This document shows, one piece after another, positions 13,038 to 34,539 of a stretch of 40,123 nucleotides of DNA (position 1 is its first letter; each line of letters begins with the position of its first letter). A program made the translations under genes and the position numbers. The notes under the pieces are model-generated. The model was not told the origin of the DNA. It ran no database searches and saw only the letters and a program-made list of their open reading frames with translations. The stretch spans positions 1-40,123 of the forward strand of contig CAXCBH010000001.1 of the NCBI GenBank assembly GCA_963980675.1. Reading direction: 5' to 3'. Source of the DNA: an uncultured bacterium. Its GTDB lineage: Bacteria; Fidelibacterota; Marinisomatia; Marinisomatales; UBA1611.

Positions 13038-13038
13038 T

Positions 13039-14151: not shown

Positions 14152-14226
14152 TTTTATACTAACACAATATTATTTAATCACAAAGTTCACTAACAATTTC
14201 ACGTTTAACAACTGTGATTTGTGTGT

Positions 14227-18192: not shown

Positions 18193-19231
18193 GAATATTA
18201 TATTTCTTTTTTAAAGACTCGATTCGATCAATGGATTGTCGAATTCTATCTTCTGTAATTTTCCCAGATTTCACTAACTGACACATGGATGAAACGGATT
18301 TTGGGATAAAGTCCGGGTCGTAATTCAAATTATTTCCAAGGCAAAAAAGATCAATACCAGCATTAAGCATCAATTCAAAAGATTCAGTTAAATCATAATG
18401 ATCTGAAATGGCATTCATACTTGGGTCATCACATATTACCACTCCGTTAAATCCTAGATCATTACGAAGCATATCTGTAATAATTATATGTGATAAGGAT
18501 GCTGGATATTTAGGGTCCATTTTTCTGTCAAATGTGTGAGAAACCATAACCATATCCAAGTCACCATATTTAATTAACTCGTCGAAAGGAAGAAGATCTT
18601 TCACCGTCCAGGTATCAGAAATATCAGTGGAACCCTTGTGCGTATCACCAAAGGCCGATCCTTGCCCGGGAAAATGTTTACCGCAAGAAATAACATTATT
18701 CTCTTTCAAAGACTGAATAAAAATTCTGCTATGGTGGATCACAGCATTTGGAAGATGAGAATTGGCTCTTTCCGCTTTCCCAATAACTGTTTCTGCACCA
18801 TAGTGTAAGTCGAGTACAGGCGCAAAATTGACATTGATCCCGCAGTCATTTAGTGTGGATGCGATTGTTTGTGAGAATTGTAGGGTCATAAGATCATTAT
18901 CGAGTAATCCCATATGATTCCATGATGGTGTTTCTGGAAATCCGTAATTGGATTTTAATCTGTTAGTTCCGCCACCTTCCTGGTCGATAGAAATCAATAG
19001 GCCATCTTTGGAAAAAGACTGGAGTTGATCCGAAAGGTCTTTTAATTGATCGGGGGATTGAATATTACGTGAGCCAAGACCACCGATTTTAACATCTTCA
19101 TCATATAGGATTACGCCTGCAAGATTATAATCTTTTATAAAATTGGCAATAGGAGAATCAGGAGGTGCATTTGATCCGCGGAATCCTGCAATAATTAGTT
19201 GTCCAATGAGTCGTTCAAGAGTATGATTCAT
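18185..19231 (-). CDS. nagZ: Beta-N-acetylhexosaminidase, GH3 (NagZ-like)
   Basis: 348 aa. Contains SIDQEGG, KHFPGQGSAFGDTH and VICDDPSMNAI, a GH3 NagZ-type catalytic domain without a signal peptide. Confidence 0.85.
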   Translation of the reverse strand: MNHTLERLIGQLIIAGFRGSNAPPDSPIANFIKDYNLAGVILYDEDVKIGGLGSRNIQSPDQLKDLSDQLQSFSKDGLLISIDQEGGGTNRLKSNYGFPETPSWNHMGLLDNDLMTLQFSQTIASTLNDCGINVNFAPVLDLHYGAETVIGKAERANSHLPNAVIHHSRIFIQSLKENNVISCGKHFPGQGSAFGDTHKGSTDISDTWTVKDLLPFDELIKYGDLDMVMVSHTFDRKMDPKYPASLSHIIITDMLRNDLGFNGVVICDDPSMNAISDHYDLTESFELMLNAGIDLFCLGNNLNYDPDFIPKSVSSMCQLVKSGKITEDRIRQSIDRIESLKKKYNIHG

Positions 19232-19344: not shown

Positions 19345-20148
19345 ATGCAAAACCTTTTTATGATGATCATTCTGGTATTTTGCCAGTTGTGGGCTGGTAA
19401 GGCAGAAACAGTTGAAATATTTAGCGATATAATGAATAAGAATATTCCAGCGTTCATCGTTATCCCAGATTCGTATAGTGGTGGAAATGATAGCCTTCCT
19501 GTTATTCTATTATTGCATGGATATGGTGGGGATTACAAAAACTGGTCATCAAAGACAAATTTACTTCGACAAGCCGATGAGTTTAATTTTATAATTGTTT
19601 GCCCAGATGGAAATCGAAACAGTTGGTATTTGGATAGTCCAATGAAACCAGAGAGCCAATATAAAACATTTTTTATCAATGAATTAGTTCCTTGGATTAA
19701 AATGAATTTTCGTACTAACCAAATGGGCATTACAGGATTAAGTATGGGTGGCCATGGTGCATTTTATTTAGCCATTAGGCATCCAGAATTATTTGATGCT
19801 GTATCTGGAATGAGTTCCGGAGTGGATTTAACCTTCTCAACCGTTAAATGGGAACTTGCTAAAATATTGGGTCCATTTGAATTATACCCTAATCGTTGGT
19901 ATGATCATTCTGTTGTGAATATGGTAGATTTAATTCAGGAAGGGTTTATGCCTATTTTAATTGATTGTGGATATGATGATTTCTTTATTGGTATAAATAG
20001 ATCATTCCATCATCGCTTGATCGATAAAAATATATCGCATATTTACGTGGAAAAACCCGGTGGGCATAATTGGGATTATTGGACCAATACGTTGGATGAA
20101 CATTTACAATTTTTTGAAAATGCATTTAATGGATCCAATATTAATTAA
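19345..20148 (+). CDS. Secreted esterase (esterase D / CE1-like alpha/beta hydrolase)
   Basis: 267 aa with a signal-like N-terminus, LLLHGYGGD, and the nucleophile elbow GLSMGGHGA. Confidence 0.8.
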   Translation: MQNLFMMIILVFCQLWAGKAETVEIFSDIMNKNIPAFIVIPDSYSGGNDSLPVILLLHGYGGDYKNWSSKTNLLRQADEFNFIIVCPDGNRNSWYLDSPMKPESQYKTFFINELVPWIKMNFRTNQMGITGLSMGGHGAFYLAIRHPELFDAVSGMSSGVDLTFSTVKWELAKILGPFELYPNRWYDHSVVNMVDLIQEGFMPILIDCGYDDFFIGINRSFHHRLIDKNISHIYVEKPGGHNWDYWTNTLDEHLQFFENAFNGSNIN

Positions 20149-20178: not shown

Positions 20179-23100
20179 ATGTTAAATAAATATCTGTTAC
20201 CCACATCTCTTTTTATCCTTTTAACAGTGACGAGTTGTTCAACATTTCCTAGAACTCAAGATTCTACAAATTGGGCAGAAAAAACTTTGAGTCAATTATC
20301 TCTCCGGGAAAAAATAGGGCAAATGATGGTCTACCGGATGAACATGCGGTTAAAGGATGTATCTTTAGAAAAGTGGAAAGAAATAAATTCTCTTATAGCA
20401 TCAGATGGTATTGGGACGATACATCTATGGTATGGTGACGCTAGCAGTTCCATAGCATTGATGAATAAAATGCAAACACTTTCAAAAGTGCCTATTTTAT
20501 TTGATGCAGACATTGAGTATGGTCTTAATCAAAGATTCCCTTCTGGGACAGACTTACCACCACTTATGGCCATTGCAGCTACTTCGAATACTAACAATTC
20601 TTATCAGGTTGGAAAAATAATTGCTAAAGAGGCGCGGGCAGTGGGCGTTCATTGGAATCTCTCTCCTGTAGTTGATGTGAATAATAATCCCTTAAATCCT
20701 ATTATTAATACGAGATCCTTTGGAGAAAATCCAAACGGCGTTAGCGAATTTGGTTTTTCTCTCATGAAAGGACTCCAAGATCACGGAATGTTGGCGACGG
20801 CAAAACATTTTCCCGGCCATGGGGATACAGAAACCGATTCTCATTCTTCTTTGGCCACGATTCCCAGTGATTCAAGCCGCCTATGGTCTGTTGAAATTTT
20901 ACCCTTTCAAGTCATGTCAGATGCAGGCGTAGATGCTATAATGGTGGCCCATGTTCATGCACCGGATTATCAACCTGAAGCAGATAAACCATCATCAATG
21001 TCACCATTTTGGATACAATCTATTCTACGAGAAAAAATTGGTTTCAAAGGTGTTGTAATTACTGATGCAATGAGTATGGGGGGTATATCAAAAAATTATT
21101 CTGATGCATTTGCTTTGATAGAAACGATTAAAGCGGGAAGTGACGTCATTATTCAAAACTATAATTTAAAAGGCTCTATAGATACCATTGAAAAAGCTAT
21201 TAATGATGGAGAAATTTCAATTCATCGAATCAATGGATCGGTATTAAAAATACTAAAAATGAAAGAAAAGGTTGGTCTTCAAAAATCTACTAAAATATCA
21301 TTAGATAGTTTTCATAATAGTTATAATAAAAATGAGCATAAACAAATTGCCAAACAAATTGCCCAAGAAGCAATAACATGTGTGAAATACGATTCGAATA
21401 TATTTCCATTTAATACAAATAATCCGGAGACACTTTATGTAATTGATATCTATGATTCCAGAAATAATCATGAAATGTCTAGTGTAACAAAAGGGCTTAA
21501 AAAATCAAGGCTCAAAATAAAAACCCTTCAAATTGACGAATCTGATTCAAAAGTTGTTTTAGATGCCATGCTAAATGAAATCCCAGAAAATGCCTTGGTA
21601 CTGGTAAATGCTTTTGCCAATCCAAAAGCGAGTAAAGATCGGATATTTCTTCCAGAGAATGAGTCAGAATTCCTTCGCACTTTAATGAATAAAACAGATC
21701 GTATTGTCCTTGCGAGTCTCGGGACACCTTATTTGATTCAAGAATTCCCAGGCATCCCGGTTTATCTTTGTGCCTATAAGAATAATTCTGTCATGCAGTC
21801 TGCGCTAGTGAATGCATTGCTGGGGAAGAATAAAATATCCGGAAAACTTCCTGTTTCAATTCCAGGGGTAGCAAAGTTTGGAGATGGTTTAGTGGTAGAA
21901 AAACAAGAAATTCAAATACAAAAGAATGGAAACTTGCCAGGGCCCAAAATAATTCAGGTGATGCCGGGTGAAATTGGTATAAGTAACAAGAAATTAAATC
22001 AATTATTAGAAGAATCAGTTAAGAACGAGGCTTGGCCCGGTGGTGTTTTACTTGCCGCAAAGGATGGAAAAATATTTGCAAAAGAAGCGTTTGGATTTCA
22101 CACCTATGATAAAAAAAGGGAAACAAGAACAAGTGACATTTTCGATCTAGCATCAATTACAAAAGTGATTTCAACAACTTCTGCTATCATGAAATTAGTC
22201 GAAAATGAAAAATTAAATCTCGATGATCCAGTTGTGAAATATTTGCCGGATTTCAAGGGGAAGCAGATTAAGTATTTTGATCAAAAGTCAAAAATCACTA
22301 TCCGTTACTTAATGACACATACTGCTGGGTTGGCCCCGTTTAAGCAATTTTATTTAATGGAAACAAGTAAAGAAGGGCGATTAGATAGTTTATATAATAG
22401 TGAGCCGGAAACAAAGATTGGTGAGAAAGTAGTTTATTCTGATATCGGTCTTATTATGCTAGGGAAATTAGTAGAGAATGTAAGTGGTGTTTCTTTAGAT
22501 AAATACGTCGACTCACTTATTTTTCAACCTATGGGTATGATATCTACATTTTATAATCCACCAAAAGAAAAATTTCACCGAATTGTTCCAACAGAAATTT
22601 CTGACCAATATAGAATAGGGTTAATACATGGAGAAGTCCACGATGAAAATGCCCATAGCATTGGTGGTGTGGCAGGGCATGCTGGCCTTTTCTCTACAGC
22701 CCGAGATTTAGCACGATTTTCTCAAATGATGCTGAATAAGGGTATTTATGGTTGGACCAGAATTTTCAAAACAGAAACGGTAAACCTATTTACACAAAGA
22801 GCCAATATTGTGGAAGGAAGTTCCCGTTGTTTGGGTTGGGATAGTCCAGATGGTGAAGCATCTGGTGGAGTATATTTAAGCGATAAAAGTTTTGGACACA
22901 CTGGATATACAGGAACATCCTTATGGATTGATCCGGAGAACCAGATTACAGTTATTTTGCTAACAAATGCGGTTCATCCTAATCGTTCTTGGAAAAAACC
23001 AAAATATTTTGACTGGCGACAGCGTATTCATTCTGCGGTTTATGAGACACTAGGATTTAAAGAACAGAATCAAAATTTTCAGTGGCGAAAAAATTGGTAA
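20179..23100 (+). CDS. Fusion lipoprotein: GH3 N-terminal (NagZ-like) domain plus C-terminal beta-lactamase/PBP-like serine hydrolase
   Basis: 973 aa. Lipobox LLTVTSC. GH3 motif KHFPGHGDTETDSH and VITDAMSMGG in the first half. SxxK motif ASITKV and a downstream YSD in the last ~370 aa. Confidence 0.85.
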   Translation: MLNKYLLPTSLFILLTVTSCSTFPRTQDSTNWAEKTLSQLSLREKIGQMMVYRMNMRLKDVSLEKWKEINSLIASDGIGTIHLWYGDASSSIALMNKMQTLSKVPILFDADIEYGLNQRFPSGTDLPPLMAIAATSNTNNSYQVGKIIAKEARAVGVHWNLSPVVDVNNNPLNPIINTRSFGENPNGVSEFGFSLMKGLQDHGMLATAKHFPGHGDTETDSHSSLATIPSDSSRLWSVEILPFQVMSDAGVDAIMVAHVHAPDYQPEADKPSSMSPFWIQSILREKIGFKGVVITDAMSMGGISKNYSDAFALIETIKAGSDVIIQNYNLKGSIDTIEKAINDGEISIHRINGSVLKILKMKEKVGLQKSTKISLDSFHNSYNKNEHKQIAKQIAQEAITCVKYDSNIFPFNTNNPETLYVIDIYDSRNNHEMSSVTKGLKKSRLKIKTLQIDESDSKVVLDAMLNEIPENALVLVNAFANPKASKDRIFLPENESEFLRTLMNKTDRIVLASLGTPYLIQEFPGIPVYLCAYKNNSVMQSALVNALLGKNKISGKLPVSIPGVAKFGDGLVVEKQEIQIQKNGNLPGPKIIQVMPGEIGISNKKLNQLLEESVKNEAWPGGVLLAAKDGKIFAKEAFGFHTYDKKRETRTSDIFDLASITKVISTTSAIMKLVENEKLNLDDPVVKYLPDFKGKQIKYFDQKSKITIRYLMTHTAGLAPFKQFYLMETSKEGRLDSLYNSEPETKIGEKVVYSDIGLIMLGKLVENVSGVSLDKYVDSLIFQPMGMISTFYNPPKEKFHRIVPTEISDQYRIGLIHGEVHDENAHSIGGVAGHAGLFSTARDLARFSQMMLNKGIYGWTRIFKTETVNLFTQRANIVEGSSRCLGWDSPDGEASGGVYLSDKSFGHTGYTGTSLWIDPENQITVILLTNAVHPNRSWKKPKYFDWRQRIHSAVYETLGFKEQNQNFQWRKNW

Positions 23101-23168
23101 CCTTATTCCCACCATTTCTCAAATAATTTTTATTGCAACCATAATTTTTATACCACTATTTTCTAGAG

Positions 23169-26100
23169 ATGAAATTTATTAGAATCTTAACTTTATTTAT
23201 CGTTCTTCAATCTTCCCTATTCCCAAGTGTTACAGGCAAAATATCTGGTATAATTACAGATGCTTCGTCCGGTAACCCTCTTATTGGTGCCAATGTAATG
23301 CTTGATGGGACATCTCTTGGGGCTGCAACAGACATCGATGGGCACTATAACATTTTAAATATCTCTCCTGGGTTTTATTCGTTGCGTGTTGAGATGATAG
23401 GCTATGGTCAAAAAACGGTTACTGATATTCGTGTTGAAATTGATTTAACTGCATTAATCGATGTCGAACTTTCTGTTGAGGCTATTTCGGGCGAAATGGT
23501 TGTTGTAAAGGCAAATCAAAAGCTAGTTAAAATTGACGTGGCATCGAGTCAAAAATCAATATCAGCATCACAAATTGCTGAAATGCCTGTCAGTAGTGTT
23601 GCTGATGTTGTTGGGCTGTCTGCAGGGGTCTCTGGTTTGTCAGTGAGAGGTGGTAGTTACAATGAAACTCAATTTATGGTTGATGGTCTTGTGATGAATG
23701 ATGAACGAACGAGTGAACCTACAACGGGAATTCCTTTAAGTGCCATCCAAGATATTTCCTTGCAAACTGGCGGATTTGGTGCAGAATATCGGAATGCTCG
23801 ATCAGGTGTCATTAATGTTGTAACAAAAGAAGGGTCAAAAGATTCTTATTCTGGCTCGTTAAGTATTCGACAATCACCGGCAACACAAAAACATTTTGGG
23901 ACATCTCCTTACGATGCTGAATCTTTCTGGTTTAAACCATACTTGGATTCAACTGTTTGTTGGACAGGAACGAACAATGGTTCTTGGGATGAGTATACTC
24001 AAAGACAGTATCCATCTTTTGATGGGTGGAACAGTGTTTCTGAACAAACCTTAGCTGATGGTGATTCCAAAAATGATTTATCACCATCAGGCGTTAAAAA
24101 ATTATTTTCTTGGGAGCATCGAAAAAATGGAGCAATCAAAAATCCTGATGTGAATATTGATGCGGGGTTTGGAGGTCCGGTTCCCTTTGTTTCAACAAAA
24201 CTAGGTGATCTTCGTTTTTATTTTTCTACTCGGCAAGAAAAAGATATGTACCTTTATGAAGTCAGCAGAAAGGGACTTGAGAAGGAATCGTATTTATTAA
24301 AATTAACATCTGACTTAAGTGTTAATTCAAAACTTGTATATACTTTATTTAATGGTCGAGTTGAGGGAACATCCTTATCTCGAGGTGGCGGTACAGCGAT
24401 TATGAATGATGTTTGGGACCTTGCAAATCAAGTTAATAGGTCAGGATTTACAATGCCGTGGAGGTTATTTACAAATGAATACTGGTCTCCCACTGAAGTG
24501 AAAAATTCAATACATGGATTAAAGTTTACAAAGCAAATCGATGGTGATACTTTTTATGATTTATTGGTAAAGTATGATACCAAGGATTATAACACAAACC
24601 ATGGTGCACGTCGAGATACTATCTCGACTTTTCCTATTTTTGGTGATGGAGAAGATACTTGGTATGCAGATGAAGCTCCCAATGGTTTTTTTGGAGGGCC
24701 TCTTTTCAGTGTAGAGGGAAGGCTTGCATTTGGTGGAGCAGTTAGTACTGCTAGGGACTTTAGCCATGTGAAAACGATTACGCTAAAAGGTAACTACACA
24801 ACTCAGTTAAATAATGTAAATCAATTAAAATTTGGTGGAGAATTAATCTACTCTGGGCTCGAATTAAAATATGGGTCACAAAATGAATTTTTACCTAGCG
24901 GTAATTATTGGTCAACGATGGATGTGGCCCCGTATCGTTTATCATTTTACGGCCAAGATAAATTGGAATTTAAAGGACTTATTGCCATCCTTGGATTAAA
25001 CCTAGACGTAATTAATCCAAATCATGCCTGGTATGACATTGACGTCTATAATGATGATTTTTATTCATCTAATTACACTAGTGATTCAGAAGCTGATTTT
25101 GAGCAAACAAACGTTGACCCGCAAATTGAGTTAAGTCCGCGATTAGCATTGTCTCATCCTATAACTGAAACATCTAAATTATATTTTAATTATGGACACT
25201 ACCAACAAATGCCTATTGCTGAATCATTATATCGTGTTAGACGAGGATTTAGTGAAGAAGTGCTTACCATAGGTGACCCAAACCTTCCTATGGCTAAAAC
25301 GATCGCTTATGAAATTGGATTCGACCAATCTTTTAATGAAAGTTATTTAATTAGATTATCTGCTTACTATAAAGACATCGCTGACCAACAAAATTATACA
25401 CGATTTATCAGTGCAAATAGTAAAGTAAACTATTCAAGGTTAACATCAAATAGCTACGAGGACATTCGTGGATTTGAATTGGAGTTATCACGAATCCGTG
25501 GTCGTTGGGTTACTGGATTTGTGAATTATGAATATCGAGTAAATACATCTGGTTACTTTGGTTTAGGATATTATTATGAGAATCCAGCAGATCAGCGGAA
25601 TTATGAGCTGAATAATCCTAAACAATATAAACCAAGGCCTATTCCTAGAATGAAGTCTGTTATTGACGTTCATACACCAGTTGATTTCGGACCTAAATTA
25701 TTAAATCAGCGAATACTGGCAGATTGGCATTTAAACATAATTAGTAAGTGGTCTGCTGGCTCATGGTTTACTTATAATCCAAACAATGTTTCAGGAATTG
25801 AGTATAATGTTCAATATCGAAATAATTATAATATTGATTTGAAATTTTCTAAAATTTTTCAAATGGGTAAGGTGAATTTGAAAATCTATGCTGATTTATA
25901 CAATGCAATGAATGTGAAGACTTTTTCCGGATATGGTTTTGAAGATGGGTTTGACTATAATTACTACATGCAATCCTTGCACATGAATGAAGATATTTCA
26001 GGAGAATTAGGGTATAATTACTTTGATGGTAATGATATGCCTGGAGATGTACGAAAAGATGGAACAGAGTTTGTTCCTTTTGAGTGGATATCTGATGTAA

Positions 26101-26321
26101 CACAATTATCATCCCCAAGCGAAAGGCCCATTTATTTTGATTCAGCATCAGACTCATTTGTACAGTGGACTGAAGAAGAAGGATGGGCTGCAGTAAATCA
26201 ATCATTATATGATGATGTGATCGCAAATAAGCAATATATAGATATGCCTAACCTATCTCATTATATTTTTCTAAATCCTCGTGATATCTTTATTGGAATA
26301 AATATTAGTTATGATTTTTAA
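23169..26321 (+). CDS. TonB-dependent outer-membrane receptor with an N-terminal CarboxypepD_reg-like domain (module 1)
   Basis: 1050 aa. Signal peptide, then GKISGIITDASSGNPLIGANV...DGHYNILNISPGFYSL (CarboxypepD_reg), a plug region (QFMVDGLVMND...GGFGAEYRNARSGVINVVTKEG), and a C-terminal aromatic residue (ISYDF). Confidence 0.9.
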   Translation: MKFIRILTLFIVLQSSLFPSVTGKISGIITDASSGNPLIGANVMLDGTSLGAATDIDGHYNILNISPGFYSLRVEMIGYGQKTVTDIRVEIDLTALIDVELSVEAISGEMVVVKANQKLVKIDVASSQKSISASQIAEMPVSSVADVVGLSAGVSGLSVRGGSYNETQFMVDGLVMNDERTSEPTTGIPLSAIQDISLQTGGFGAEYRNARSGVINVVTKEGSKDSYSGSLSIRQSPATQKHFGTSPYDAESFWFKPYLDSTVCWTGTNNGSWDEYTQRQYPSFDGWNSVSEQTLADGDSKNDLSPSGVKKLFSWEHRKNGAIKNPDVNIDAGFGGPVPFVSTKLGDLRFYFSTRQEKDMYLYEVSRKGLEKESYLLKLTSDLSVNSKLVYTLFNGRVEGTSLSRGGGTAIMNDVWDLANQVNRSGFTMPWRLFTNEYWSPTEVKNSIHGLKFTKQIDGDTFYDLLVKYDTKDYNTNHGARRDTISTFPIFGDGEDTWYADEAPNGFFGGPLFSVEGRLAFGGAVSTARDFSHVKTITLKGNYTTQLNNVNQLKFGGELIYSGLELKYGSQNEFLPSGNYWSTMDVAPYRLSFYGQDKLEFKGLIAILGLNLDVINPNHAWYDIDVYNDDFYSSNYTSDSEADFEQTNVDPQIELSPRLALSHPITETSKLYFNYGHYQQMPIAESLYRVRRGFSEEVLTIGDPNLPMAKTIAYEIGFDQSFNESYLIRLSAYYKDIADQQNYTRFISANSKVNYSRLTSNSYEDIRGFELELSRIRGRWVTGFVNYEYRVNTSGYFGLGYYYENPADQRNYELNNPKQYKPRPIPRMKSVIDVHTPVDFGPKLLNQRILADWHLNIISKWSAGSWFTYNPNNVSGIEYNVQYRNNYNIDLKFSKIFQMGKVNLKIYADLYNAMNVKTFSGYGFEDGFDYNYYMQSLHMNEDISGELGYNYFDGNDMPGDVRKDGTEFVPFEWISDVTQLSSPSERPIYFDSASDSFVQWTEEEGWAAVNQSLYDDVIANKQYIDMPNLSHYIFLNPRDIFIGINISYDF

Positions 26322-28461
26322 ACGATTATTTTTTATTAGTTTATTTTTATACACGATTAATTTTGCTCAAGAAGTGAAGTGGATGGCAATTGGTGATCTT
26401 CATAATTGGTATTCAGCTGCAGGGTGTGAAATTGAAGTTGGTAGAACAGGACAAGTATCAGATCAGCAAGATGGCCTGCGTTATCCAGCTTTTTATCGAG
26501 TACAAGACAACCAAGCTGCAAAAGGTCTTTGGTTAGGTGCGACGAATTTTCATGATCCCATCGTATCTAAAGATTATGAATATAAAGTTGTGCATGCGGG
26601 GCCTAGGCATTTGGATATTGAGAATGAAACTATACCAAAGGAAATTTCTTTGCATGGTAGGTATGGTCACCCCAATGTTTTTGTTGATGGTGATCCGGCA
26701 ACTAATCTTCAATATCTTGATAATGTTGATGAAGTTGATCCGGATTTGCCAGCTGATAGGAAAATTTATAATGTTGTCCAAACGTCCATTGGTGTTGAAA
26801 TGCAAAGAACCATTTATGCATTTTCTCATCCTGAACACCAGAATTATCATATCCAAGAATATGTATTTACAAATAATGGCTGCTACGATGCAGATTGTAA
26901 TACGAGCTACGAGCAGACCCTTGAAGGGTTTCAAGTCTATTTACAGTATAGATACGCTATTAGCAGGGAAGGTATGGTTTATGATGGGGGCTGGTTACCC
27001 CAGAGCGCAGCATGGGGTCATAATACAATGAATGATGTTATCGGAGAAAATCCAGATGCACCCTCAGGAAATGATCAATACTACGATGATGGGGAAATCA
27101 TTCGAGGCTTGTTCTCTTGGCAAGGGTATCACTCAGATGCCAGTTTTGATAATATTGGTGGCCCAAATTCACCAGGTGAAGGTCACTTAGGTGCTGCTCA
27201 ATTTGTAGGTGTTACAACCCTCCATGCTGATACAAGCCCTGCTGATAATACCAATGATTTAAATCAGCCAAGTACAACTTGGTTCATTACTTCGGATGAT
27301 CCTTCTACATCTGGTAATGATCAATATAATGAAACAAAGTCAAGGAAAGAGTATAATCAATATATGTCTGTAGGACACCCTGAACAATCCCAAGCAGAAG
27401 TGGTTGGAACGGGCTATGCCAATCAATTTGCAGATCCAAGAGCTGGTTCAAATCCTGGTGGAACGTCTCAAGGAATTGGCTTTGGTCCCTATACCTTAGC
27501 ACCGGGCGAAAGTATTAGAATTGTTCTTGCTGAAGGTGCAGCAGGTTTAAGCCGCGAAATGTGTTATCTTGTTGGCCAAAATTGGAAGAATGATATCCAT
27601 ACAGGAGATATGCCGGCACCATCATCCTTGAATACATGGATGATGGAGCATTACAATGGTGGGTCTGGAAAAAATGAATATAAAAATGCGTGGGTTTTTA
27701 CAGGTGCAGACTCCATTGTAAAAACATTTAAAAAAGCAAAAGAAACATTCGATTTGATGGAGTCAGGGCAAACATTGCCGTTTCCACCTCGACCGCCAGC
27801 TATTTTCACAGTAACATCAGGTGGTGATCGAATTACAATTGACTGGTCAGCTGAATCTGAATCTGAGCCTGGAATGGACGGGTATAATCTATATCGGTTA
27901 AAATTTAAACCAGATACATCCTTATTTTATTATGATTTAGCTAATGGCAACATTGTGGACCTAGATGAATCTATTGCTTCAATTTGGACTTTAGATCCTG
28001 GCATTGGTTCTTATGAAGATTTAACTCCTGAACGAGGATTTGATTATTACTATTTTTTGGAAGCATTTGATAATGGTACAAACGATAATATTGTTTTAAA
28101 TAGTAGCAAATTTTATACACTGACTAATAAAGCAGCTTTCCTTAAACGTCCACCTGGAACAAGCTACAGTGATATTCGTATAGTACCAAATCCCTTCCAC
28201 ATATCCGCCAGAGACTTACAATATGGAGTGAGCGCACCTGATCGATTGATGTTTTTAAATATCCCTGCTAAATGTACTATCCGAATATTTACAGAAAGGG
28301 GTGACTTGGTTGATACAATTGAGCATACAGATGGAAGTGGGGATGAAGCTTGGAATTCAATTACTTCATCAAGGCAGATTATTGTTAGTGGACTTTATAT
28401 TGCACATTTTGATATGGGATCAGAAGGATCTGAAATTCGTAAATTCACAGTAATAAGATAG
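26311..28461 (+). CDS. Uncharacterised secreted TBDR-partner protein: novel N-terminal region, FN3-like domain and T9SS-CTD-like C-terminal beta-sandwich (module 1)
   Basis: 716 aa. Its ATG overlaps the TBDR stop by 11 nt. Has a signal peptide, an FN3-like segment (PPAIFTVTSGGDRITIDWSAE...GYNLYR), and a paralog at 34540..36684. Confidence 0.85.
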   Translation: MIFKRLFFISLFLYTINFAQEVKWMAIGDLHNWYSAAGCEIEVGRTGQVSDQQDGLRYPAFYRVQDNQAAKGLWLGATNFHDPIVSKDYEYKVVHAGPRHLDIENETIPKEISLHGRYGHPNVFVDGDPATNLQYLDNVDEVDPDLPADRKIYNVVQTSIGVEMQRTIYAFSHPEHQNYHIQEYVFTNNGCYDADCNTSYEQTLEGFQVYLQYRYAISREGMVYDGGWLPQSAAWGHNTMNDVIGENPDAPSGNDQYYDDGEIIRGLFSWQGYHSDASFDNIGGPNSPGEGHLGAAQFVGVTTLHADTSPADNTNDLNQPSTTWFITSDDPSTSGNDQYNETKSRKEYNQYMSVGHPEQSQAEVVGTGYANQFADPRAGSNPGGTSQGIGFGPYTLAPGESIRIVLAEGAAGLSREMCYLVGQNWKNDIHTGDMPAPSSLNTWMMEHYNGGSGKNEYKNAWVFTGADSIVKTFKKAKETFDLMESGQTLPFPPRPPAIFTVTSGGDRITIDWSAESESEPGMDGYNLYRLKFKPDTSLFYYDLANGNIVDLDESIASIWTLDPGIGSYEDLTPERGFDYYYFLEAFDNGTNDNIVLNSSKFYTLTNKAAFLKRPPGTSYSDIRIVPNPFHISARDLQYGVSAPDRLMFLNIPAKCTIRIFTERGDLVDTIEHTDGSGDEAWNSITSSRQIIVSGLYIAHFDMGSEGSEIRKFTVIR
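28168..28458 (+). other. T9SS C-terminal-sorting-domain-like / FlgD-Ig-like segment of the 716-aa protein
   Basis: IRIVPNPF...LMFLNIPAKCTIRIFTERGDLVDTIEH...DEAWN...VSGLYIAHF...RKFTVIR follows the (V)PNP(F/Y) ... I.I(F/Y)...G.LV ... W.. ... SG.Y pattern of Por_Secre_tail-type domains. Confidence 0.5.
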
Positions 28462-28465
28462 CGGT

Positions 28466-29275
28466 ATGAATAAAAATAATTACAAACTAAATCTCACACT
28501 TATGGCGCTGATAATAGTTGGTTGCGATGATTTAACAAAAGATTATCAGAGTAATGAAAAATATCCATTGGCAATTGATAATACAATTTGCGAAATATTA
28601 AATGAAAAGGAATCAAATACAGTCATCACTTTTACCCCAGATTCTCTCTCTATGATTGCAATTTATGATAGTTTGATTACTGACACAGTGTCTTTTGCAG
28701 TTCTCAGTAATTCAAATAATTGGAAAATTCCTATTGATTCATTAACCTATTTTATGGTCTATGCACCTCAAACTGCAGATTCTTATTATGTGGCTTTAAA
28801 CTCATCAAGTGAATTTGGTTTATTTTCCGCAAGTGGTGAAGAAGTAATGCCAGACCAGACAATTTCATCTATGGTAAATATTGCAGGTTGTTCCGATATA
28901 AGAGTTAGGTATACATATTCATCCTTGAATGGCGTTTATTTAGCCCGACTGGTGAATTCAAATGTTTCATCAGTTAAAATGGTATTTATGAATTCAAATT
29001 CTATACCTGCTGCAGGATTTTCTGTTTCACCTGTATTAGCTGCGGTTGGTGACACACTCACTTTTTCCGAATCTTCATCAAGTGGATCTTATCCAATTGT
29101 TATCTTTTCATGGGATTTTGATGATGGGACTTCAAGCGATGATTCATCTATTGTAGAACATGTTTATTCAGATTCTGGCTCTTTTTCACCTTCATTGACT
29201 GTCTCTGATGGATATTTATCCCATTCAGTCACTCAAACCAGCTTGATTACAATTAGTGGCGGGAGTGAAGAATAA
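28466..29275 (+). CDS. Lipoprotein with a C-terminal PKD domain
   Basis: 269 aa. Lipobox LIIVGC. PKD signature FSWDFDDGTSS...VEHVYSDSGSFSPSLTVSDG. Confidence 0.8.
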   Translation: MNKNNYKLNLTLMALIIVGCDDLTKDYQSNEKYPLAIDNTICEILNEKESNTVITFTPDSLSMIAIYDSLITDTVSFAVLSNSNNWKIPIDSLTYFMVYAPQTADSYYVALNSSSEFGLFSASGEEVMPDQTISSMVNIAGCSDIRVRYTYSSLNGVYLARLVNSNVSSVKMVFMNSNSIPAAGFSVSPVLAAVGDTLTFSESSSSGSYPIVIFSWDFDDGTSSDDSSIVEHVYSDSGSFSPSLTVSDGYLSHSVTQTSLITISGGSEE

Positions 29276-30261
29276 TGAAAAATATAAAATACATATTCAC
29301 CTTTGTTTTAATAGTTACTATATCATTTGGATCTGAAAATAAAAAATTGGCTCAAACTGGGTTTCAATTTTTAAGTGTTTCAGCAGATGCAAGAGGCGGA
29401 GGAATGGGAGATGCAATGACAACTATTTTTGGTAATTCATCTTCTTTATTCTTTAATCCTGCTGGAATGTCTAGACAAAAACAATTAATTGATTTTAATT
29501 TTAGCTCAAACGAATGGATTGCAGATATTTCTTATGAAGCATTCAGTATGTCAGTTAGCCCGAAAAATGGTTTATATGGTGTTTTTGGGTTCACCATGCT
29601 GAATGTGGATTATGGAGAATTACAAGGGACGATGGTCTGGGATAATGAACAGGGTTTCATTGATACAGAAATATTTAAACCAACAGCTCTCTCACTTGGG
29701 TTTGGGTATGGCCGCGCATTATCGGAAAATTTTTCTGTGGGTGCCCATGTAAAAAAAGCGTATCAAAACCTAGGGTATAATGTTGTCCCAGCAACAGATA
29801 CATCAAAAATTGTCCAAAAAAATACTGCTGATGCCATTGCTTTTGATTTTGGTACTATTTATGAAACAGATTGGCATGGCTTTTCATTTGGAATGTCTGT
29901 TCGAAATTTTAGTGATGAAACTCAATTTTCATATGATGGATTTCAACTCCCATTAACATTTCGAATTGGTGGGTCATTGGAACTGCTTGGTTTCACACCT
30001 CTAGCTGACAAATCTCAATCGTTAGTGTTGGCATTAGAGGCACTTCATCCACGATCATACCCAGAAAGAATGAATATTGGATTGGAATATTCATTTATGA
30101 GGATAGCAAACCTCCGAATGGGCTATTTATATAATTATGATGAACGAGGCCTAACCTATGGCGGTGGAGTGAAAATTGGTCCCCTTTCTATCGATTATGC
30201 TTTAACTCCCTTTGGAATTTTTGACAACGTCAGTAGAGTAAGTATTGGAATTTCAAAATGA
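29275..30261 (+). CDS. PorV/PorQ-family outer-membrane beta-barrel (T9SS-associated)
   Basis: 328 aa. After the signal peptide, LAQTGFQFLSVSADARGGGMGDAMTTIFGNSSSLFFNPAGMS matches the conserved PorV/PorQ N-terminal motif as recalled. The rest alternates beta-strand-like segments. Confidence 0.7.
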   Translation: MKNIKYIFTFVLIVTISFGSENKKLAQTGFQFLSVSADARGGGMGDAMTTIFGNSSSLFFNPAGMSRQKQLIDFNFSSNEWIADISYEAFSMSVSPKNGLYGVFGFTMLNVDYGELQGTMVWDNEQGFIDTEIFKPTALSLGFGYGRALSENFSVGAHVKKAYQNLGYNVVPATDTSKIVQKNTADAIAFDFGTIYETDWHGFSFGMSVRNFSDETQFSYDGFQLPLTFRIGGSLELLGFTPLADKSQSLVLALEALHPRSYPERMNIGLEYSFMRIANLRMGYLYNYDERGLTYGGGVKIGPLSIDYALTPFGIFDNVSRVSIGISK

Positions 30262-31478
30262 AGAATGCACTTAATATAAATCAAAATATATCCATTGGGC
30301 TTTTATTAATAATATTTTCTTGTGAAGATCCAAACTATCCAAATGATGTTTGGGATGAAGAAGATATAGGAAATGCAACACCAATAGTCACTGGGGTTGT
30401 CCCAGCAGATGGAGCATTTGCAGGAATTGATACAATCATTATTTCAGGTCAATATTTTTCACTTTCTTTTTCTGAAAATCTTGTTTATTTCAATGGCATG
30501 TTAGGGAATGTAGTTAATGCAACATCAACTGCATTATCAGTCGTTCCTCCAAATCTGGTTAGCGATAGTGTCACGGTTAAAGTAGCAGTACAAGGTGCAT
30601 TCGTATTTGGTGAACTTGATGGTTTCTACCGGTTGACTGCCGCTGTTCAGGAATATGGCCCTTTTGATCAGTTTACTGATATTTACTCCTTAGATTTGGA
30701 TTTAAGTGAAAATCTATATGTGTCAATGGATGGTTCTCCTAATGCAGAATTTTGGATGGTGAATTCAGATGGAGATTCATCAGTATGGTCTGGCGCGTTG
30801 GCCAAGGGAGCTGGAATGAAAATTGGCCCTACAGGAAGTATTTATTATGTGAACTTTCAACGATATCTTTACAAAGATGAACAAAATACTCCAAAAGAGA
30901 ATACTGAAATATTTAAACGATTAAATGGAAATGCCACAGATCTGGATTTTGATGCGAATGGAAACCTTTTTGTCGGTGGAACGGGTTCTGTAATTGATGT
31001 CGTCAATATTTATGATGAAGGAGGGATTACATCAGGTGTAACTGAAGTGAAAGACTTGGGAGATCTTAATGTGGTTAATCTAAGAGTATATGGAGATCAT
31101 GTCTATATTCTAACTTCGAACACAACTTCTGAAAAAGTTATTTATAGATTACCAATTTTAGATACAGCTGGCACCTTGGGTGATTTAGAAGTTGTTTATG
31201 ATTGGTCTGTAAATATTATTGATGCAACAGCATTATGTTTTACACTAACATCATCTGGCGATTTATTAATAGGATCTGATTCTGAAACTGACCCGCTTGT
31301 TTTGGTTAAAGATGGGGTAGCTTCCGGATTCTATTCTTCTGTTCTTGTTCCCCCGATTAGTTATATGGCTTGGGGTAATGCTGAATTTCTCTATTTAATT
31401 AATAAAACTGATGAGACAAATAGAGTACAGAAAATTGATACAAGGATGGATGGTGCAGGCTATTATGGTCGGCCGTGA
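30258..31478 (+). CDS. Lipoprotein with an N-terminal IPT/TIG domain and a beta-propeller-like body
   Basis: 406 aa. Lipobox LIIFSC. PIVTGVVPADGAFAGIDTIIISGQYFS...LVYFNG is IPT/TIG-like. Repeated DxxGNLxV-type blade motifs follow (DANGNLFVGG, SSGDLLIGS). Confidence 0.75.
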   Translation: MKNALNINQNISIGLLLIIFSCEDPNYPNDVWDEEDIGNATPIVTGVVPADGAFAGIDTIIISGQYFSLSFSENLVYFNGMLGNVVNATSTALSVVPPNLVSDSVTVKVAVQGAFVFGELDGFYRLTAAVQEYGPFDQFTDIYSLDLDLSENLYVSMDGSPNAEFWMVNSDGDSSVWSGALAKGAGMKIGPTGSIYYVNFQRYLYKDEQNTPKENTEIFKRLNGNATDLDFDANGNLFVGGTGSVIDVVNIYDEGGITSGVTEVKDLGDLNVVNLRVYGDHVYILTSNTTSEKVIYRLPILDTAGTLGDLEVVYDWSVNIIDATALCFTLTSSGDLLIGSDSETDPLVLVKDGVASGFYSSVLVPPISYMAWGNAEFLYLINKTDETNRVQKIDTRMDGAGYYGRP

Positions 31479-31494
31479 TTGATGACTCTCTTTC

Positions 31495-34400
31495 ATGTCG
31501 ATAATTATTCGATCCCTTAAACTTAACTTATTACTTTTTTTCTTTTTTTATAATTTATTATTTCCCGGCACGACGGGGAAAATATCTGGCATTGTTCGTA
31601 ATATTGAAACTGAAGACCCATTAATCGGTGTTAATGTTGCTCTCGTTAGTACTCCTTTCGGTGCTGTTACTGATGAGACTGGTAGGTTTACACTCCTGAA
31701 TATTCCACCTGGTAATTATCAAATCCAAGCCAGTATGATGGGGTACTCAAAATATTTGATCAATGATTTAAGTGTGGGAATTGATCAAACAACTCAAATC
31801 AATATTCCAATGTCTCAAGAGTCTATTAAAATGAAAGAAGTCATTGTTCAAGCGAGTAAACCCATTATTCAATTGGATATTTCTAATAGCCAGTTTAATG
31901 TTAGTTCAGATGAAATAATATCATTACCAATAGATGAAATATCTGATATTCTTGACTTACAAGCAGGTGTGAATGGTTTAAGTATTAGAGGCGGGGGCAC
32001 AAGAGAATCTTTATTTCGTGTTGATGGATTTTCTTATAACGATGAAAGATCTAATATTCCATACACATCTATTCCAATCGGAATTATTAAAGAAATTCAA
32101 GTTCAAACAGGTGGCTTTAATGCAGAATATGGGAATATTCGTTCTGGAGTCATAAATGTTGTTTTGGCTGAAGGTGATAAAAATAAGGTTCATGGTGGAA
32201 TTACTTTCAGACATAGTCCCCCTACCCAGAAACATTTTGGCAATTCATTGTATTCAAGTGATTCATATTTTTTCCGTCCATTTCTAGATAATAATGTTTC
32301 TTGGGTTGGTACTGAAAATGGGAATTGGGATGCATACACAAGACGACAATATCCTTCTTTTGAAGGGTGGAATGCTGTTGCAGATGCAACATTACAGGAC
32401 GATGACCCTTCTAATGATCTTACACCTGCGAGTGCACAACAAATTTTCAAATGGCAACACAGGCGTAATGGTATTATCCAACATCCTGATGAAAATATGG
32501 ATTTATTTGTTTCAGGTCCAGTCCCCTTTGTATCGGAACTGGCAGGGAATCTTCGCTTTCTATTTAGTTATCGCAAAGAAAATGAAGCATTTATTTTTCC
32601 ATTATCCTATAAAGATTTTAAAGATAATTCTTGGTTGCTAAAGCTCACATCTGATTTCACAAAAAAAACTAAGATCAATTTTTCTCTTCAAAAGGGGCAG
32701 ATTCAATCTGTTTCCCCATATTCTTGGAAAACAACTCCAACGGGAACTTATTTACGCACATCTTATGAAGTAGCAAATCTCCTGAATGGTTCTTCTGGTA
32801 ATAGCATGTTATTTATGCCGGGTTATTACTCTCCTACCTTAATAAATAGATCAATTATTGGGATCAATTTGACTCACATGTTTTCTGAAAAAAAGTACCT
32901 AGAATTTTCCATCCAATATCAGTCTAATGATTATAATACTTTTCAAATGGAATTAAGGGATACAACAAAAACATATAAAATTATTCCCGGTTCGAATGAA
33001 TTAAAATTAGATGAGGCTCCATTTGGATATTGGGGATATGCTGAGACAGGTATTGATGGTATGGGGATTGGTGGTTGGATGAATCTTGGAAGAGATGAAT
33101 CAGTTAATTCAACCACAATTATTGATGTTGATTACATTAGCCAAATTGGAAATAATCACCATATTAAAAGTGGTGTAGGTGCTATACTCAATTCATTTAA
33201 AATAAGGTCTTTCACAGAAAGTCCCAGCATGTCTACTTGGAATCGATCAATGATTTATGACACTTCGCCATATAGATTATTTGCATATATTCAAGATAAA
33301 ATTGAGTATAAAGGATTCATTTCAAATATTGGAATCCGCAGTGATATCTCCAGCGGGAATTCGGATATTTATGATTTAGGCGAATATGATGATTATTTCA
33401 AACAGGGGAATGGCCACGATATTGAAGAAAATGTACCGTCCGCAATATCAAAACCAATTCATGCAATTAGTCCGAGACTAGGGATTTCTCATCCTATCAC
33501 AGATAAATCAAAATTATATTTTAATTACGGACATTTTTATTCTGAACCTTCTTCATCTTATCGTTTCAGATTACAAAGGGAAAGTAATGGGTTAGTGACT
33601 CATATTGGTGACCCTGGAATGGAATTTGAAAAAACCATTGCTTATGAAACAGGGTATTCATCAGATTTATTAGGACGCTTGTTATTGAATGTGGCTTTGT
33701 ATTATAAGGATATTACCAATCAACCGGGATGGGTTTATTATCAAAATATGAATGGGACGGTTCAAGTTAATCGAATTGAGAGTAATAATTATGAAGATAT
33801 TCGAGGTCTTGAGATTACCTTAAATAAAAAATTGGGTAATTGGATAACGGGTATGGTGAATTATACCTACCAAGTTGAATCTTCAGGATATTTTGGATTA
33901 TTAAAACAATTCCAAGATCCAAATGTGCAGCGAGATTATGAGAGTTTAAATCAATATCAGTCAAAACCACGGCCCAGACCTTATTTAAAAGCTGTTGCTC
34001 ATATTAGATCACCAAATAATTTTGGTCCTAAAATTTTTGGTCAATCCGTTTTTGGCAATTGGGCATCCAGTTTCATATATAAATATAATTCCGGTGGATT
34101 TGAAACATATAATCCACAAAACCTGCCTGGCGTGTCAAATAATATTCAGTGGAAAGATAATTATACTACGGATGCACGTTTTTCAAAAAAAATACAATTA
34201 AAAGAAACAACACTTGAATTTTTATTAGATGTAAAAAATTTATTTAATAATAAGTTTATTAGCTATGCGGGGTTTGCAGATTATTATGATTATATCGATT
34301 ATTTAGAATCATTGAGATTCTCATGGGAAGAAGGAAAGGAGAGGGGAGATGATAGAATTGGCGAATACAGAGCTTGGGATATTGATTATCAGCCATATGA

Positions 34401-34539
34401 ACCTGAAGATTGGCAAAATCCAACAGCAGAAGAGCAAGAGATACTAGACTCAAAAGCTTATATTGATATGCCAAATATCCGATCGGTAAGTTTTCTCAAT
34501 CCACGTGATATTTACTTTGGAATATCAGTGTATTTTTAA
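31495..34539 (+). CDS. TonB-dependent outer-membrane receptor with a CarboxypepD_reg-like domain (module 2, paralog of 23169..26321)
   Basis: 1014 aa with the same architecture as module 1 and clear alignable blocks, for example GKISGIVRN..DPLIGVNV, GGFNAEYGNIRSGVINVV and RHSPPTQKHFG...YPSFEGWN. C-terminal ISVYF. Confidence 0.9.
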   Translation: MSIIIRSLKLNLLLFFFFYNLLFPGTTGKISGIVRNIETEDPLIGVNVALVSTPFGAVTDETGRFTLLNIPPGNYQIQASMMGYSKYLINDLSVGIDQTTQINIPMSQESIKMKEVIVQASKPIIQLDISNSQFNVSSDEIISLPIDEISDILDLQAGVNGLSIRGGGTRESLFRVDGFSYNDERSNIPYTSIPIGIIKEIQVQTGGFNAEYGNIRSGVINVVLAEGDKNKVHGGITFRHSPPTQKHFGNSLYSSDSYFFRPFLDNNVSWVGTENGNWDAYTRRQYPSFEGWNAVADATLQDDDPSNDLTPASAQQIFKWQHRRNGIIQHPDENMDLFVSGPVPFVSELAGNLRFLFSYRKENEAFIFPLSYKDFKDNSWLLKLTSDFTKKTKINFSLQKGQIQSVSPYSWKTTPTGTYLRTSYEVANLLNGSSGNSMLFMPGYYSPTLINRSIIGINLTHMFSEKKYLEFSIQYQSNDYNTFQMELRDTTKTYKIIPGSNELKLDEAPFGYWGYAETGIDGMGIGGWMNLGRDESVNSTTIIDVDYISQIGNNHHIKSGVGAILNSFKIRSFTESPSMSTWNRSMIYDTSPYRLFAYIQDKIEYKGFISNIGIRSDISSGNSDIYDLGEYDDYFKQGNGHDIEENVPSAISKPIHAISPRLGISHPITDKSKLYFNYGHFYSEPSSSYRFRLQRESNGLVTHIGDPGMEFEKTIAYETGYSSDLLGRLLLNVALYYKDITNQPGWVYYQNMNGTVQVNRIESNNYEDIRGLEITLNKKLGNWITGMVNYTYQVESSGYFGLLKQFQDPNVQRDYESLNQYQSKPRPRPYLKAVAHIRSPNNFGPKIFGQSVFGNWASSFIYKYNSGGFETYNPQNLPGVSNNIQWKDNYTTDARFSKKIQLKETTLEFLLDVKNLFNNKFISYAGFADYYDYIDYLESLRFSWEEGKERGDDRIGEYRAWDIDYQPYEPEDWQNPTAEEQEILDSKAYIDMPNIRSVSFLNPRDIYFGISVYF

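Follow-up and report, generated by a model that had tools for sequence, protein, structure and literature searches.

The stretch of DNA analysed here, called the window throughout, comprises 40,123 nucleotides (nt) of an uncultured bacterium (lineage Fidelibacterota, Marinisomatia, Marinisomatales, UBA1611; GenBank assembly GCA_963980675.1, contig CAXCBH010000001.1, positions 1 to 40,123, forward strand) and encodes two paralogous proteins of 716 and 714 amino acids (aa), termed X1 and X2 and together X, each of them directly downstream of a gene for a TonB-dependent transporter (TBDT). The chances appear to us about even that X is a surface substrate-binding partner of the adjacent TBDT, in the position of SusD or of a surface glycan-binding protein (SGBP) and delivered by the secretion system of type IX (T9SS), as had been proposed in an original prediction made from the sequence of the window alone. 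On this reading, which is the best supported, X would be obligate to, and serve only, the TBDT whose gene immediately precedes its own, in a 1:1 relation. The two gene pairs are arranged as follows:

23169..26321, + strand: TBDT1, TonB-dependent transporter (Pfam CarbopepD_reg_2 1.2e-16, Plug 5.6e-07)
26311..28461, + strand: X1, 716 aa, the subject of the finding (open reading frame map, paralogy, AlphaFold2 model)
31495..34539, + strand: TBDT2, paralog of TBDT1 with the TonB-box-like segment KEVIVQAS (CarboxypepD_reg and Plug domains, alignment to TBDT1)
34540..36684, + strand: X2, 714 aa, paralog of X1 with an identical four-part architecture

The open reading frames (ORFs) lie exactly as had been claimed. 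Indeed, the ATG of X1 is found 11 nt inside the end of TBDT1 (ATGATTTTTAA) while the TAA of TBDT2 directly precedes the ATG of X2, so that the latter two genes abut. TBDT1 displays an N-terminal CarboxypepD_reg domain followed by the TonB-box-like segment GEMVVVKA and a Plug domain; its barrel is large and its C-terminal residue is Phe. The alleged paralogy of the two X products was borne out by an end-to-end alignment with 34% identity (E 5e-115), and both motifs quoted in its favour were found, namely IYNVVQTSIGVEMQRTIYAFS in X1 with VVNRVNTSMGLTMERRIFAFS in X2, and NAWVFTGADSIVKTF in X1 with NSWVFTGKDSILKTF in X2. TBDT1 and TBDT2 are 38% identical; therefore, transporter and partner diverged in parallel. 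Furthermore, identity between X1 and X2 reaches 57-62% in the C-terminal tail vs 28% in the N-terminal domain (N-domain), and this difference would fit two copies that share one secretion or anchoring partner while their ligand-side surfaces diverged.

ORFs were next called in 84 loci and classified with the window's proteins. A TBDT gene is located directly upstream, on the same strand, of 125 of the 134 full-length X genes, the gap having a median of 14 nt. Of the nine X genes that remain, five lie at a contig edge, two come second in a TBDT-X-X arrangement, one is preceded by a 782-aa ORF without classification (locus L065) and one is an orphan (locus L073) that is considered below. Co-occurrence with TBDTs elsewhere, the lack of which had been named beforehand as refuting the partnership, is hence found in the large majority of the X genes. 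Moreover, the subtypes of transporter and partner (TBDT1 with X1, TBDT2 with X2) agree in 124 of these 125 pairs and, because of this agreement, the TBDT and X of a pair are seen to have been inherited, to have duplicated and to have diverged together. In L001 (1322-5728) and L071 (5790-10124), one transporter gene is followed by two X genes in tandem, which breaks the usual 1:1 ratio.

The two pairs are part of a longer series of genes, the other members of which are in the window:

20179..23100, + strand: GH3 / beta-lactamase-fold fusion lipoprotein, 973 aa (Pfam Glyco_hydro_3 9e-79, Beta-lactamase 8e-63)
28466..29275, + strand: PKD-domain lipoprotein, lipobox IIVGC then DD (Pfam PKD_4 3.5e-12)
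29275..30261, + strand: PorV/PorQ-family outer-membrane barrel, 328 aa (NF033709 PorV_fam, 181.3 bits, cut-off 90)
30258..31478, + strand: IPT/TIG-domain lipoprotein, lipobox IFSC then ED (Pfam TIG 9.8e-11)
36833..39400, + strand: NHL-repeat beta-propeller protein with a canonical T9SS C-terminal domain (CTD) (Pfam NHL, FlgD_ig and Por_Secre_tail; TIGR04183 34.4 bits)

The gene of the GH3/beta-lactamase fusion is directly upstream of TBDT1, a position at which it is kept in the Marinimicrobia loci L005, L007 and L009-L011. From 20179 to 36684 every gene is on the + strand with intergenic gaps of -11 to +68 nt, and no terminator-like site was found between the cassette genes in a promoter and terminator scan, the hits of which were no more than chance. 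Given this uniform strand, these short gaps and the lack of an intergenic terminator-like site, the region from 20179 to 36684 is suggested to be one long operon.

In the other loci the same surroundings recur. Among the 67 loci with enough sequence, 65 contain a PorV/PorQ-family barrel, which immediately follows X in 71 cases and is present twice in some loci, and 59 contain an IPT/TIG lipoprotein, often followed by a beta-propeller protein of ~ 450 aa with a canonical CTD. The conserved cassette thus consists of eight genes, in the order TBDT, X, (PKD), PorV/PorQ-like barrel, IPT/TIG lipoprotein, propeller-CTD protein, TBDT and X. Independent gene calls with precomputed Pfam annotation give the same cassette in Calditrichota, Melioribacteraceae, KSB1 and Calditrichota bacterium GD2, and no SusD-family gene is present in these annotated loci. 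The GD2 cassette is complete (L092; chromosome CM137747.1, 314185-336329); the 5.03-Mb record is not labelled as a metagenome-assembled genome (MAG), and GD2 may be a cultured strain where the hypothesis could be tested. In the window, the lipoboxes of the PKD and IPT/TIG proteins are followed by acidic residues (GCDD and SCED), a pattern which recurs in their homologs (L005-L084). Acidic residues after the lipobox Cys resemble the surface-export signal of Bacteroidota lipoproteins. Here, the pattern occurs in phyla in which this signal is not known to have been studied, and the PKD and IPT/TIG proteins, as putative surface lipoproteins, could share the SGBP role.

A gene set of this kind might also serve something other than nutrient uptake, X together with the PorV-like and TBDT-like barrels forming an adhesion, envelope-structural or secretion-related assembly. 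Such a role, which we hold to be very improbable, would agree with the one or two near-identically organised cassettes that each fetched locus contains, where Bacteroidota have loci in large number and variety, with the location of the GD2 cassette among housekeeping genes and with relatives that fuse the X domain to PMP-repeat and BNR modules of adhesin kind. However, the barrels carry a Plug and TonB-box-like segments, which are hallmarks of active importers, the fold of the X N-domain (see below) is carbohydrate-associated and glycan-processing genes recur beside the cassette.

In order to describe the architecture of X, a full-length AlphaFold2 (AF2) model of X1 was built on 48 family members, giving a predicted local distance difference test score (pLDDT) of 85.7 and a predicted template modelling score (pTM) of 0.84. 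The model displays a signal helix, a beta domain, four helices, a fibronectin type III (FN3)-like domain and an immunoglobulin (Ig)-like sandwich. In X1, all on the + strand, the parts are (slashes mark signal peptide ends):

26311..26367, + strand: signal peptide, aa 1-19, MIFKRLFFISLFLYTINFA/QE, of signal peptidase I (SPase-I) type, no lipobox (sequence reading, lipobox scan)
26368..27546, + strand: beta-supersandwich domain, aa 20-412 (domain AF2 model with pTM 0.89, Foldseek, conservation)
27547..27768, + strand: four-helix linker, aa 413-486, which contains NAWVFTGADSIVKTF (DSSP of the model)
27769..28146, + strand: FN3-like domain, aa 487-612, into which a variable stretch is inserted at ~ aa 531-560 (Foldseek, family profile, conservation)
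28147..28458, + strand: C-terminal tail, aa 613-716, a diverged T9SS type-A CTD-like Ig domain (hhalign)

The secreted status that had been attributed to both proteins agrees with their N-termini, which read as SPase-I type signal peptides ending in YTINFA/QE in X1, where the model places a helix at residues 2-18, and in LVSS/RV in X2. Neither of them has a lipobox and, among 123 members of the family, a loose match to the lipobox pattern was obtained for only 6, most of these matches lying inside the mature protein. The linker helices of X1 are found by DSSP at residues 415-427, 439-448, 454-462 and 464-484. When searched against Pfam and NCBIfam, X1 and X2 gave no match, the sole signal being a sub-threshold fn3 hit in X2 (E 0.0011, 19.6 bits vs a cut-off of 25), and separate scans of the N-domain, the FN3 region and the tail at E up to 10 gave no family match either; sequence searches of the PDB returned FN3-like domains only. 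The postulated FN3-like unit is nevertheless present at the fold and profile level, below the Pfam gathering score, as the family profile matches the Fn3-like PDB entry 3mpc (E 6.6e-4) and Foldseek matches the region to tandem FN3 domains with a probability of 1.0.

Since the full-length Foldseek search was dominated by the FN3 domain and the tail, residues 20-490 were modelled separately (AF2, pTM 0.89) and searched against the PDB with Foldseek. The best matches of the N-domain are the N-terminal beta-supersandwich domains of GH94, GH116, GH63, GH161 and GH65 enzymes, more precisely of GH94 cellodextrin, cellobiose and laminaribiose phosphorylases, GH116 glucosidases, a GH63 glucosidase, GH161 and GH65 phosphorylases and dextran dextrinase. 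They also include the 2,600-2,800-residue chains of CgsiGP1/CgsiGP2, which we take, by name and length only, to be a cyclic beta-1,2-glucan synthase with a GH94-type phosphorylase domain, while the YidC P1 domain and OpgG stand lower in the list. These matches have E values of 3.7e-08 to 1e-4 and a probability of 1.0, but query TM-scores of 0.25-0.32 and a root-mean-square deviation (rmsd) above 10 Å. The N-domain of X and those of the GH94/GH116/GH65/GH63/GH161/GH15 type would be alike in their sandwich fold, as far as these matches go, and in both a helical segment follows the sandwich. In sequence, by contrast, X is unlike the GH94/GH65/GH116-type enzymes, and in place of their (alpha/alpha)6 catalytic barrel, which is absent from the X model, there are four helices (aa 415-484) and then the FN3 domain and the CTD-like tail. 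From the model, the N-domain is read as belonging to the galactose-mutarotase-like supersandwich fold class and not to any glycoside hydrolase (GH) family, a fold that favours carbohydrate recognition. The claim that the N-terminal region matches nothing hence holds at the sequence level (Pfam, NCBIfam and PDB) and fails at the level of the fold.

Two candidate identities of X were tried and rejected. Homology to SusD is contradicted by the absent lipobox, the beta fold and the lack of a Pfam match; in agreement with the earlier statement that no SusD pattern is visible, there is no SusD match in Pfam or NCBIfam and the model is predominantly beta. A known catalytic module of a GH, polysaccharide lyase (PL) or carbohydrate esterase (CE) was rejected given the lack of any match at E up to 10, PDB matches to FN3 only and the missing catalytic barrel; the absence of such motifs had been claimed as well, and no intact known catalytic module was found.

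The tail was examined by comparing the X family profile with seven canonical T9SS CTDs by hhalign. It matches the canonical type-A CTDs with a probability of 94.6% and an E value of 6.7e-8, and several motifs are in register, namely PNPF, an I-x-I-F/Y strand, an SG-x-Y strand and a terminal K-x-x-x-x-[KR], while IRIVPNPF, IFTERGDL and DGSGDEAW are specific to the X family and missing from the canonical CTDs. The CTD-like tail that had been noticed at first reading is thus upheld by profile comparison, though PF18962 and TIGR04183 miss it. T9SS is known to occur in lineages of the Fibrobacteres-Chlorobi-Bacteroidetes (FCB) group. Within the window, the T9SS items are the PorV/PorQ-family gene and the canonical-CTD protein, the core genes (sprA, porK-N) being located beyond it, and the Foldseek matches of the C-terminal half of X include PorZ (5m11). 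The barrel encoded at 29275..30261 passes NF033709 but fails both equivalog cut-offs, with 80.5 of 250 bits for PorV and 78.5 of 220 for PorQ; by these scores it is a separate subfamily, neither PorV nor PorQ. Taken together, the tail homology, the Por_Secre_tail domains of relatives and the PorV/PorQ-family gene of the cassette strengthen the probable link of X to T9SS.

X could instead be periplasmic, its tail being merely Ig-like and without secretion signal, and receive or process the substrate on the inner side of the TBDT. An SPase-I signal peptide without lipobox and the failure of the curated CTD models are compatible with this location, and periplasmic processing enzymes are TBDT-adjacent too, such as the GH3 fusion at 20179..23100. 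We nonetheless consider it improbable, as the tail matches canonical CTDs motif by motif, relatives carry canonical CTDs, a PorV/PorQ-family barrel adjoins X in nearly all loci and the family is confined to FCB-group lineages.

The distribution of the family was investigated by word-indexed protein searches (E <= 1e-50), in which 1163 clusters are related to X1, 646 to X2 and 1289 to an X of Caldithrix, the three sets overlapping. Nearly all of these proteins are 670-730 aa long, and the names given to the related clusters do not go beyond "hypothetical protein" and "fibronectin". With the N-domain as query, an exhaustive HMMER scan yielded 449 representatives (clustered at 50%). When one genome was scanned for each GTDB species, at least 586 stretches were obtained, and the 80 loci kept are labelled Marinimicrobia, Calditrichota, KSB1, Melioribacteraceae/Ignavibacteriales, Delongbacteria, WOR-3 and Balneolaceae, or belong to several loosely labelled MAGs. 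In the searches made, the family was confined to FCB-group lineages; it is a large, unnamed family of FCB-group phyla other than the classical cultured Bacteroidota. It had been described as uncharacterised, and indeed it has no Pfam or NCBIfam model. In the literature, no published description of the family or of the cassette was found, the Caldithrix genome and SAR406 papers mentioning TBDTs and Por-tail proteins only generally.

About one fifth of the N-domain representatives listed are longer, with 950-1600 aa. Eight long forms were scanned; in these, BNR/sortilin propellers or PMP repeats accompany the N-domain, and six of them have a canonical Por_Secre_tail at their end. None of the three long forms with readable contigs is TBDT-adjacent. 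One long form adjoins genes for T9SS-secreted GHL10 and alpha-amylase proteins (L087, 1767-8523) and another stands behind a gene ending in a CTD. Since the domain recurs with varied partners and canonical CTDs in these proteins, the X N-domain would therefore be a reusable T9SS-cargo module.

Within aa 20-412 of X1, the invariant residues are E40, D66, W74, D149, R150, R166, N178, N188, R214, W235, W270, H305, D307, Q319, D329 and E408, to which K458 and D467 are added in the N-domain set. In total, strict or near-strict invariance across both X subfamilies (X1 and X2) and the long-form relatives extends to about 20 polar or aromatic residues, and the site is rich in Trp and charged side chains (Trp/Asp/Arg/His). 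Catalytic members of the supersandwich fold class include galactose mutarotase and the OpgG/OpgD-type glucanases. Accordingly, X may be a surface or secreted enzyme, that is, a new carbohydrate-active catalytic family built on the supersandwich, which would cut or modify the polymer outside the cell, leaving the products for import by the TBDT, in the manner of SusG and not of SusD. The invariant residues, kept in relatives that have other domains and no adjacent TBDT, are typical of active sites, the fold class includes OpgG, itself a Foldseek match, and the long forms adjoin T9SS-secreted GHL10 and alpha-amylase enzymes. In contrast, the sequence of X matches no GH, PL or CE family, the best structural matches all hit the non-catalytic N-domain while the (alpha/alpha)6 barrel is lacking in X, and a strict 1:1 coupling with the TBDT is more like that of obligate transporter partners than that of the position-variable enzymes of utilization loci. 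We regard an enzyme as a serious though rather unlikely alternative.

If X does assist its TBDT at the surface, Sec export would come first, and T9SS would then carry X across the outer membrane via its CTD-like tail. It would be kept at the cell surface, most plausibly with the tail held by the PorV/PorQ-family barrel of the cassette, the FN3 domain and the helical linker acting as a spacer. The supersandwich would bind a glycan at the invariant Trp/Asp/Arg/His site and hand it to the cognate TBDT for TonB-driven import.

With low confidence, the substrate may be an amino-sugar glycan such as peptidoglycan strands. This suggestion comes from the GH3/beta-lactamase fusion, the SpoIID protein and the second GH3 in the window, and from T9SS-secreted GHL10 (DigH-family) enzymes in other phyla. 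Indeed, 1034-aa proteins composed of GHL10, Big_5 and a CTD follow the cassette in Calditrichota and Melioribacteraceae, together with SpoIID in L002, and CTD-bearing GHL10 proteins are found at the flanks of the cassette in L001 and L002 as well as in six other loci. DigH of E. coli is a GHL10 protein (6e-136), and it acts on denuded peptidoglycan glycans (PMC12288456). The fusion of a NagZ-like GH3 with a serine beta-lactamase/DD-peptidase fold could be one periplasmic enzyme trimming both the sugar and the peptide of muropeptides. No riboswitch or other RNA hint at the substrate was found in the window.

Upstream of the cassette, a divergent block (12138..19231, - strand) encodes a GH3, proteins of 311 aa and 370 aa without Pfam match, SpoIID, a sodium:solute symporter as well as a metallo-beta-lactamase (MBL)-fold protein, and an esterase gene follows at 19345..20148 (+ strand). 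Together, block and esterase look like an amino-sugar or peptidoglycan salvage route adjoining the TBDT cassette.

Several points weigh against X as a T9SS-delivered surface partner. Its surface location, T9SS dependence, anchoring, ligand binding and contact with the TBDT or the PorV-like barrel are all inferred. PF18962 and TIGR04183 do not match the tail, even in a separate scan of it with E up to 10. No part of X is more conserved than the tail (0.68 vs 0.55), but in a control the canonical CTD of the cassette propeller protein shows an equal trend (0.64 vs 0.53 for its body); hence, the proposal that the tail is unusually conserved and thus retained was reduced to a weaker form, that of the X1/X2 comparison given above, and tail conservation alone is no proof of retention. 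The tree of the PorV-like protein displays no clean co-diversification with the X1/X2 subtype, and the orphan X of L073 (7914-9995) has no TBDT, PorV-like or TIG neighbour. The fold assignment of the N-domain is partial, its TM-scores being low. Furthermore, most of the long-form relatives without TBDT linkage retain the invariant residues at 85-100%; since these residues are equally kept there, they appear to mark an intrinsic ligand or catalytic site and not a TBDT interface. Such strict conservation seems more typical of enzymes than of SusD/SGBP-type binders and leaves an enzymatic role some probability. As for the substrate, glycan-related genes of the kind described above are within the fetched flanks of only ~ 13 of the 84 loci, and the GD2 cassette stands among housekeeping genes. 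In sum, adjacency, subtype pairing and the T9SS link speak for the SusD/SGBP analogy of the original prediction, whereas the N-terminal region, for which no match had been recognised, does have a predicted fold, and the possible enzymatic role qualifies the analogy.

The orphan X of L073 is flanked by genes for a metallophosphoesterase, a peptidase C26, a PfkB kinase and a melibiase-like protein.

The uptake of large nutrients in Bacteroidota is understood mainly from TBDTs that have surface partners (SusCD, RagAB, BtuBG), and all TBDT surface partners known to us are lipoproteins. The X cassette is similar to the SusD/RagB systems in that X lies directly downstream of a TBDT with an N-terminal CarboxypepD_reg extension at a 1:1 ratio, both members of the pair are duplicated together and diverge together, and the locus also encodes secreted enzymes and accessory lipoproteins of the surface. 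The differences concern the protein itself. SusD is alpha-helical and TPR-like (tetratricopeptide repeat) while X is mostly beta (supersandwich, FN3 and Ig-like tail), with no kinship in sequence or fold, and SusD is lipid-anchored while X shows an SPase-I signal and a T9SS-type tail and no lipid anchor. Moreover, SusD/RagB systems occur in Bacteroidota and X in Marinimicrobia, Calditrichota, KSB1, Ignavibacteria-type and related phyla. With the SusC model TIGR04056, TBDT1 scores 58.9 and TBDT2 46.9 bits vs a cut-off of 368, at model positions 2-128 only; by score, the cassette TBDTs are not SusC-family members.

A surface partner other than SusD is exemplified by BtuG on BtuB (PMC10404256). 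Like the proposed X, BtuG and the SusE/F-type proteins are beta-rich surface ligand-capturers encoded beside a TBDT, but they are lipoproteins with other folds, a beta-propeller in BtuG and tandem domains resembling Ig or carbohydrate-binding modules in the SusE/F type. The association of a TBDT with a dedicated surface accessory protein is hence already known; new here, and partly supported, are its T9SS type and its unrelated fold. We know of no BtuG or SusE/F-type partner that uses a T9SS CTD or a PorV-like anchor.

In Porphyromonas, T9SS attachment involves PorZ held by PorQ and PorU held by PorV, and SprB-SprF-type gene pairs of cargo and adaptor are known as well. The scheme proposed for X resembles PorZ-PorQ, PorU-PorV and SprB-SprF in combining a T9SS-type C-terminal domain with a dedicated barrel of the PorV/PorQ/PorP family, and by analogy such a tail-barrel pairing is a plausible way to hold a non-lipoprotein X at the surface. 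Unlike the proposed X, PorZ, PorU and SprB belong to the secretion or attachment machinery or are adhesins, and are not TBDT partners. A bolder version, which we put forward tentatively and consider doubtful on balance, is that the tail represents a third, cassette-specific class of T9SS sorting and anchoring domain, in which the PorV/PorQ-like barrel permanently holds X at the surface as a non-lipoprotein lid of the TBDT; the cassette would then be a glycan importer of FCB phyla without a SusD-type partner, possibly for peptidoglycan strands.

Concerning the rest of the window, its GC content is ~ 37% (AT-rich) and its closest protein matches are labelled Candidatus Marinimicrobia, Neomarinimicrobiota or Fidelibacterota. 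The ORF of the propeller protein (36833..39400) contains a perfect direct repeat of 1055 nt at a spacing of 1107 nt (36902-37956 and 38009-39063), which doubles the NHL propeller in frame to give 855 aa. The ORFs at the propeller position of the Marinimicrobia-type loci L008 and L011 measure only ~ 1.46-1.49 kb, roughly 490 codons. Either a tandem duplication took place here very recently, or the repeat is an artefact of the assembly.

With respect to the known uptake systems, the cassette points to another design, in which the place of SusD is taken by a Sec/T9SS-type protein with an unrelated, carbohydrate-type fold, accompanied by a PorV-like barrel of its own. If this is true, type IX secretion would be mechanistically linked to TonB-dependent import, and the supersandwich would be new, whether as a glycan-binding module or as an enzyme family. 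Should X be an anchored lid of its transporter, the cassette would constitute an unrecognised route for the uptake of dissolved organic matter, including in the ocean-abundant Marinimicrobia. If confirmed, the design would also offer functional access to dark-ocean heterotrophs that rank among the most abundant of those not cultured.

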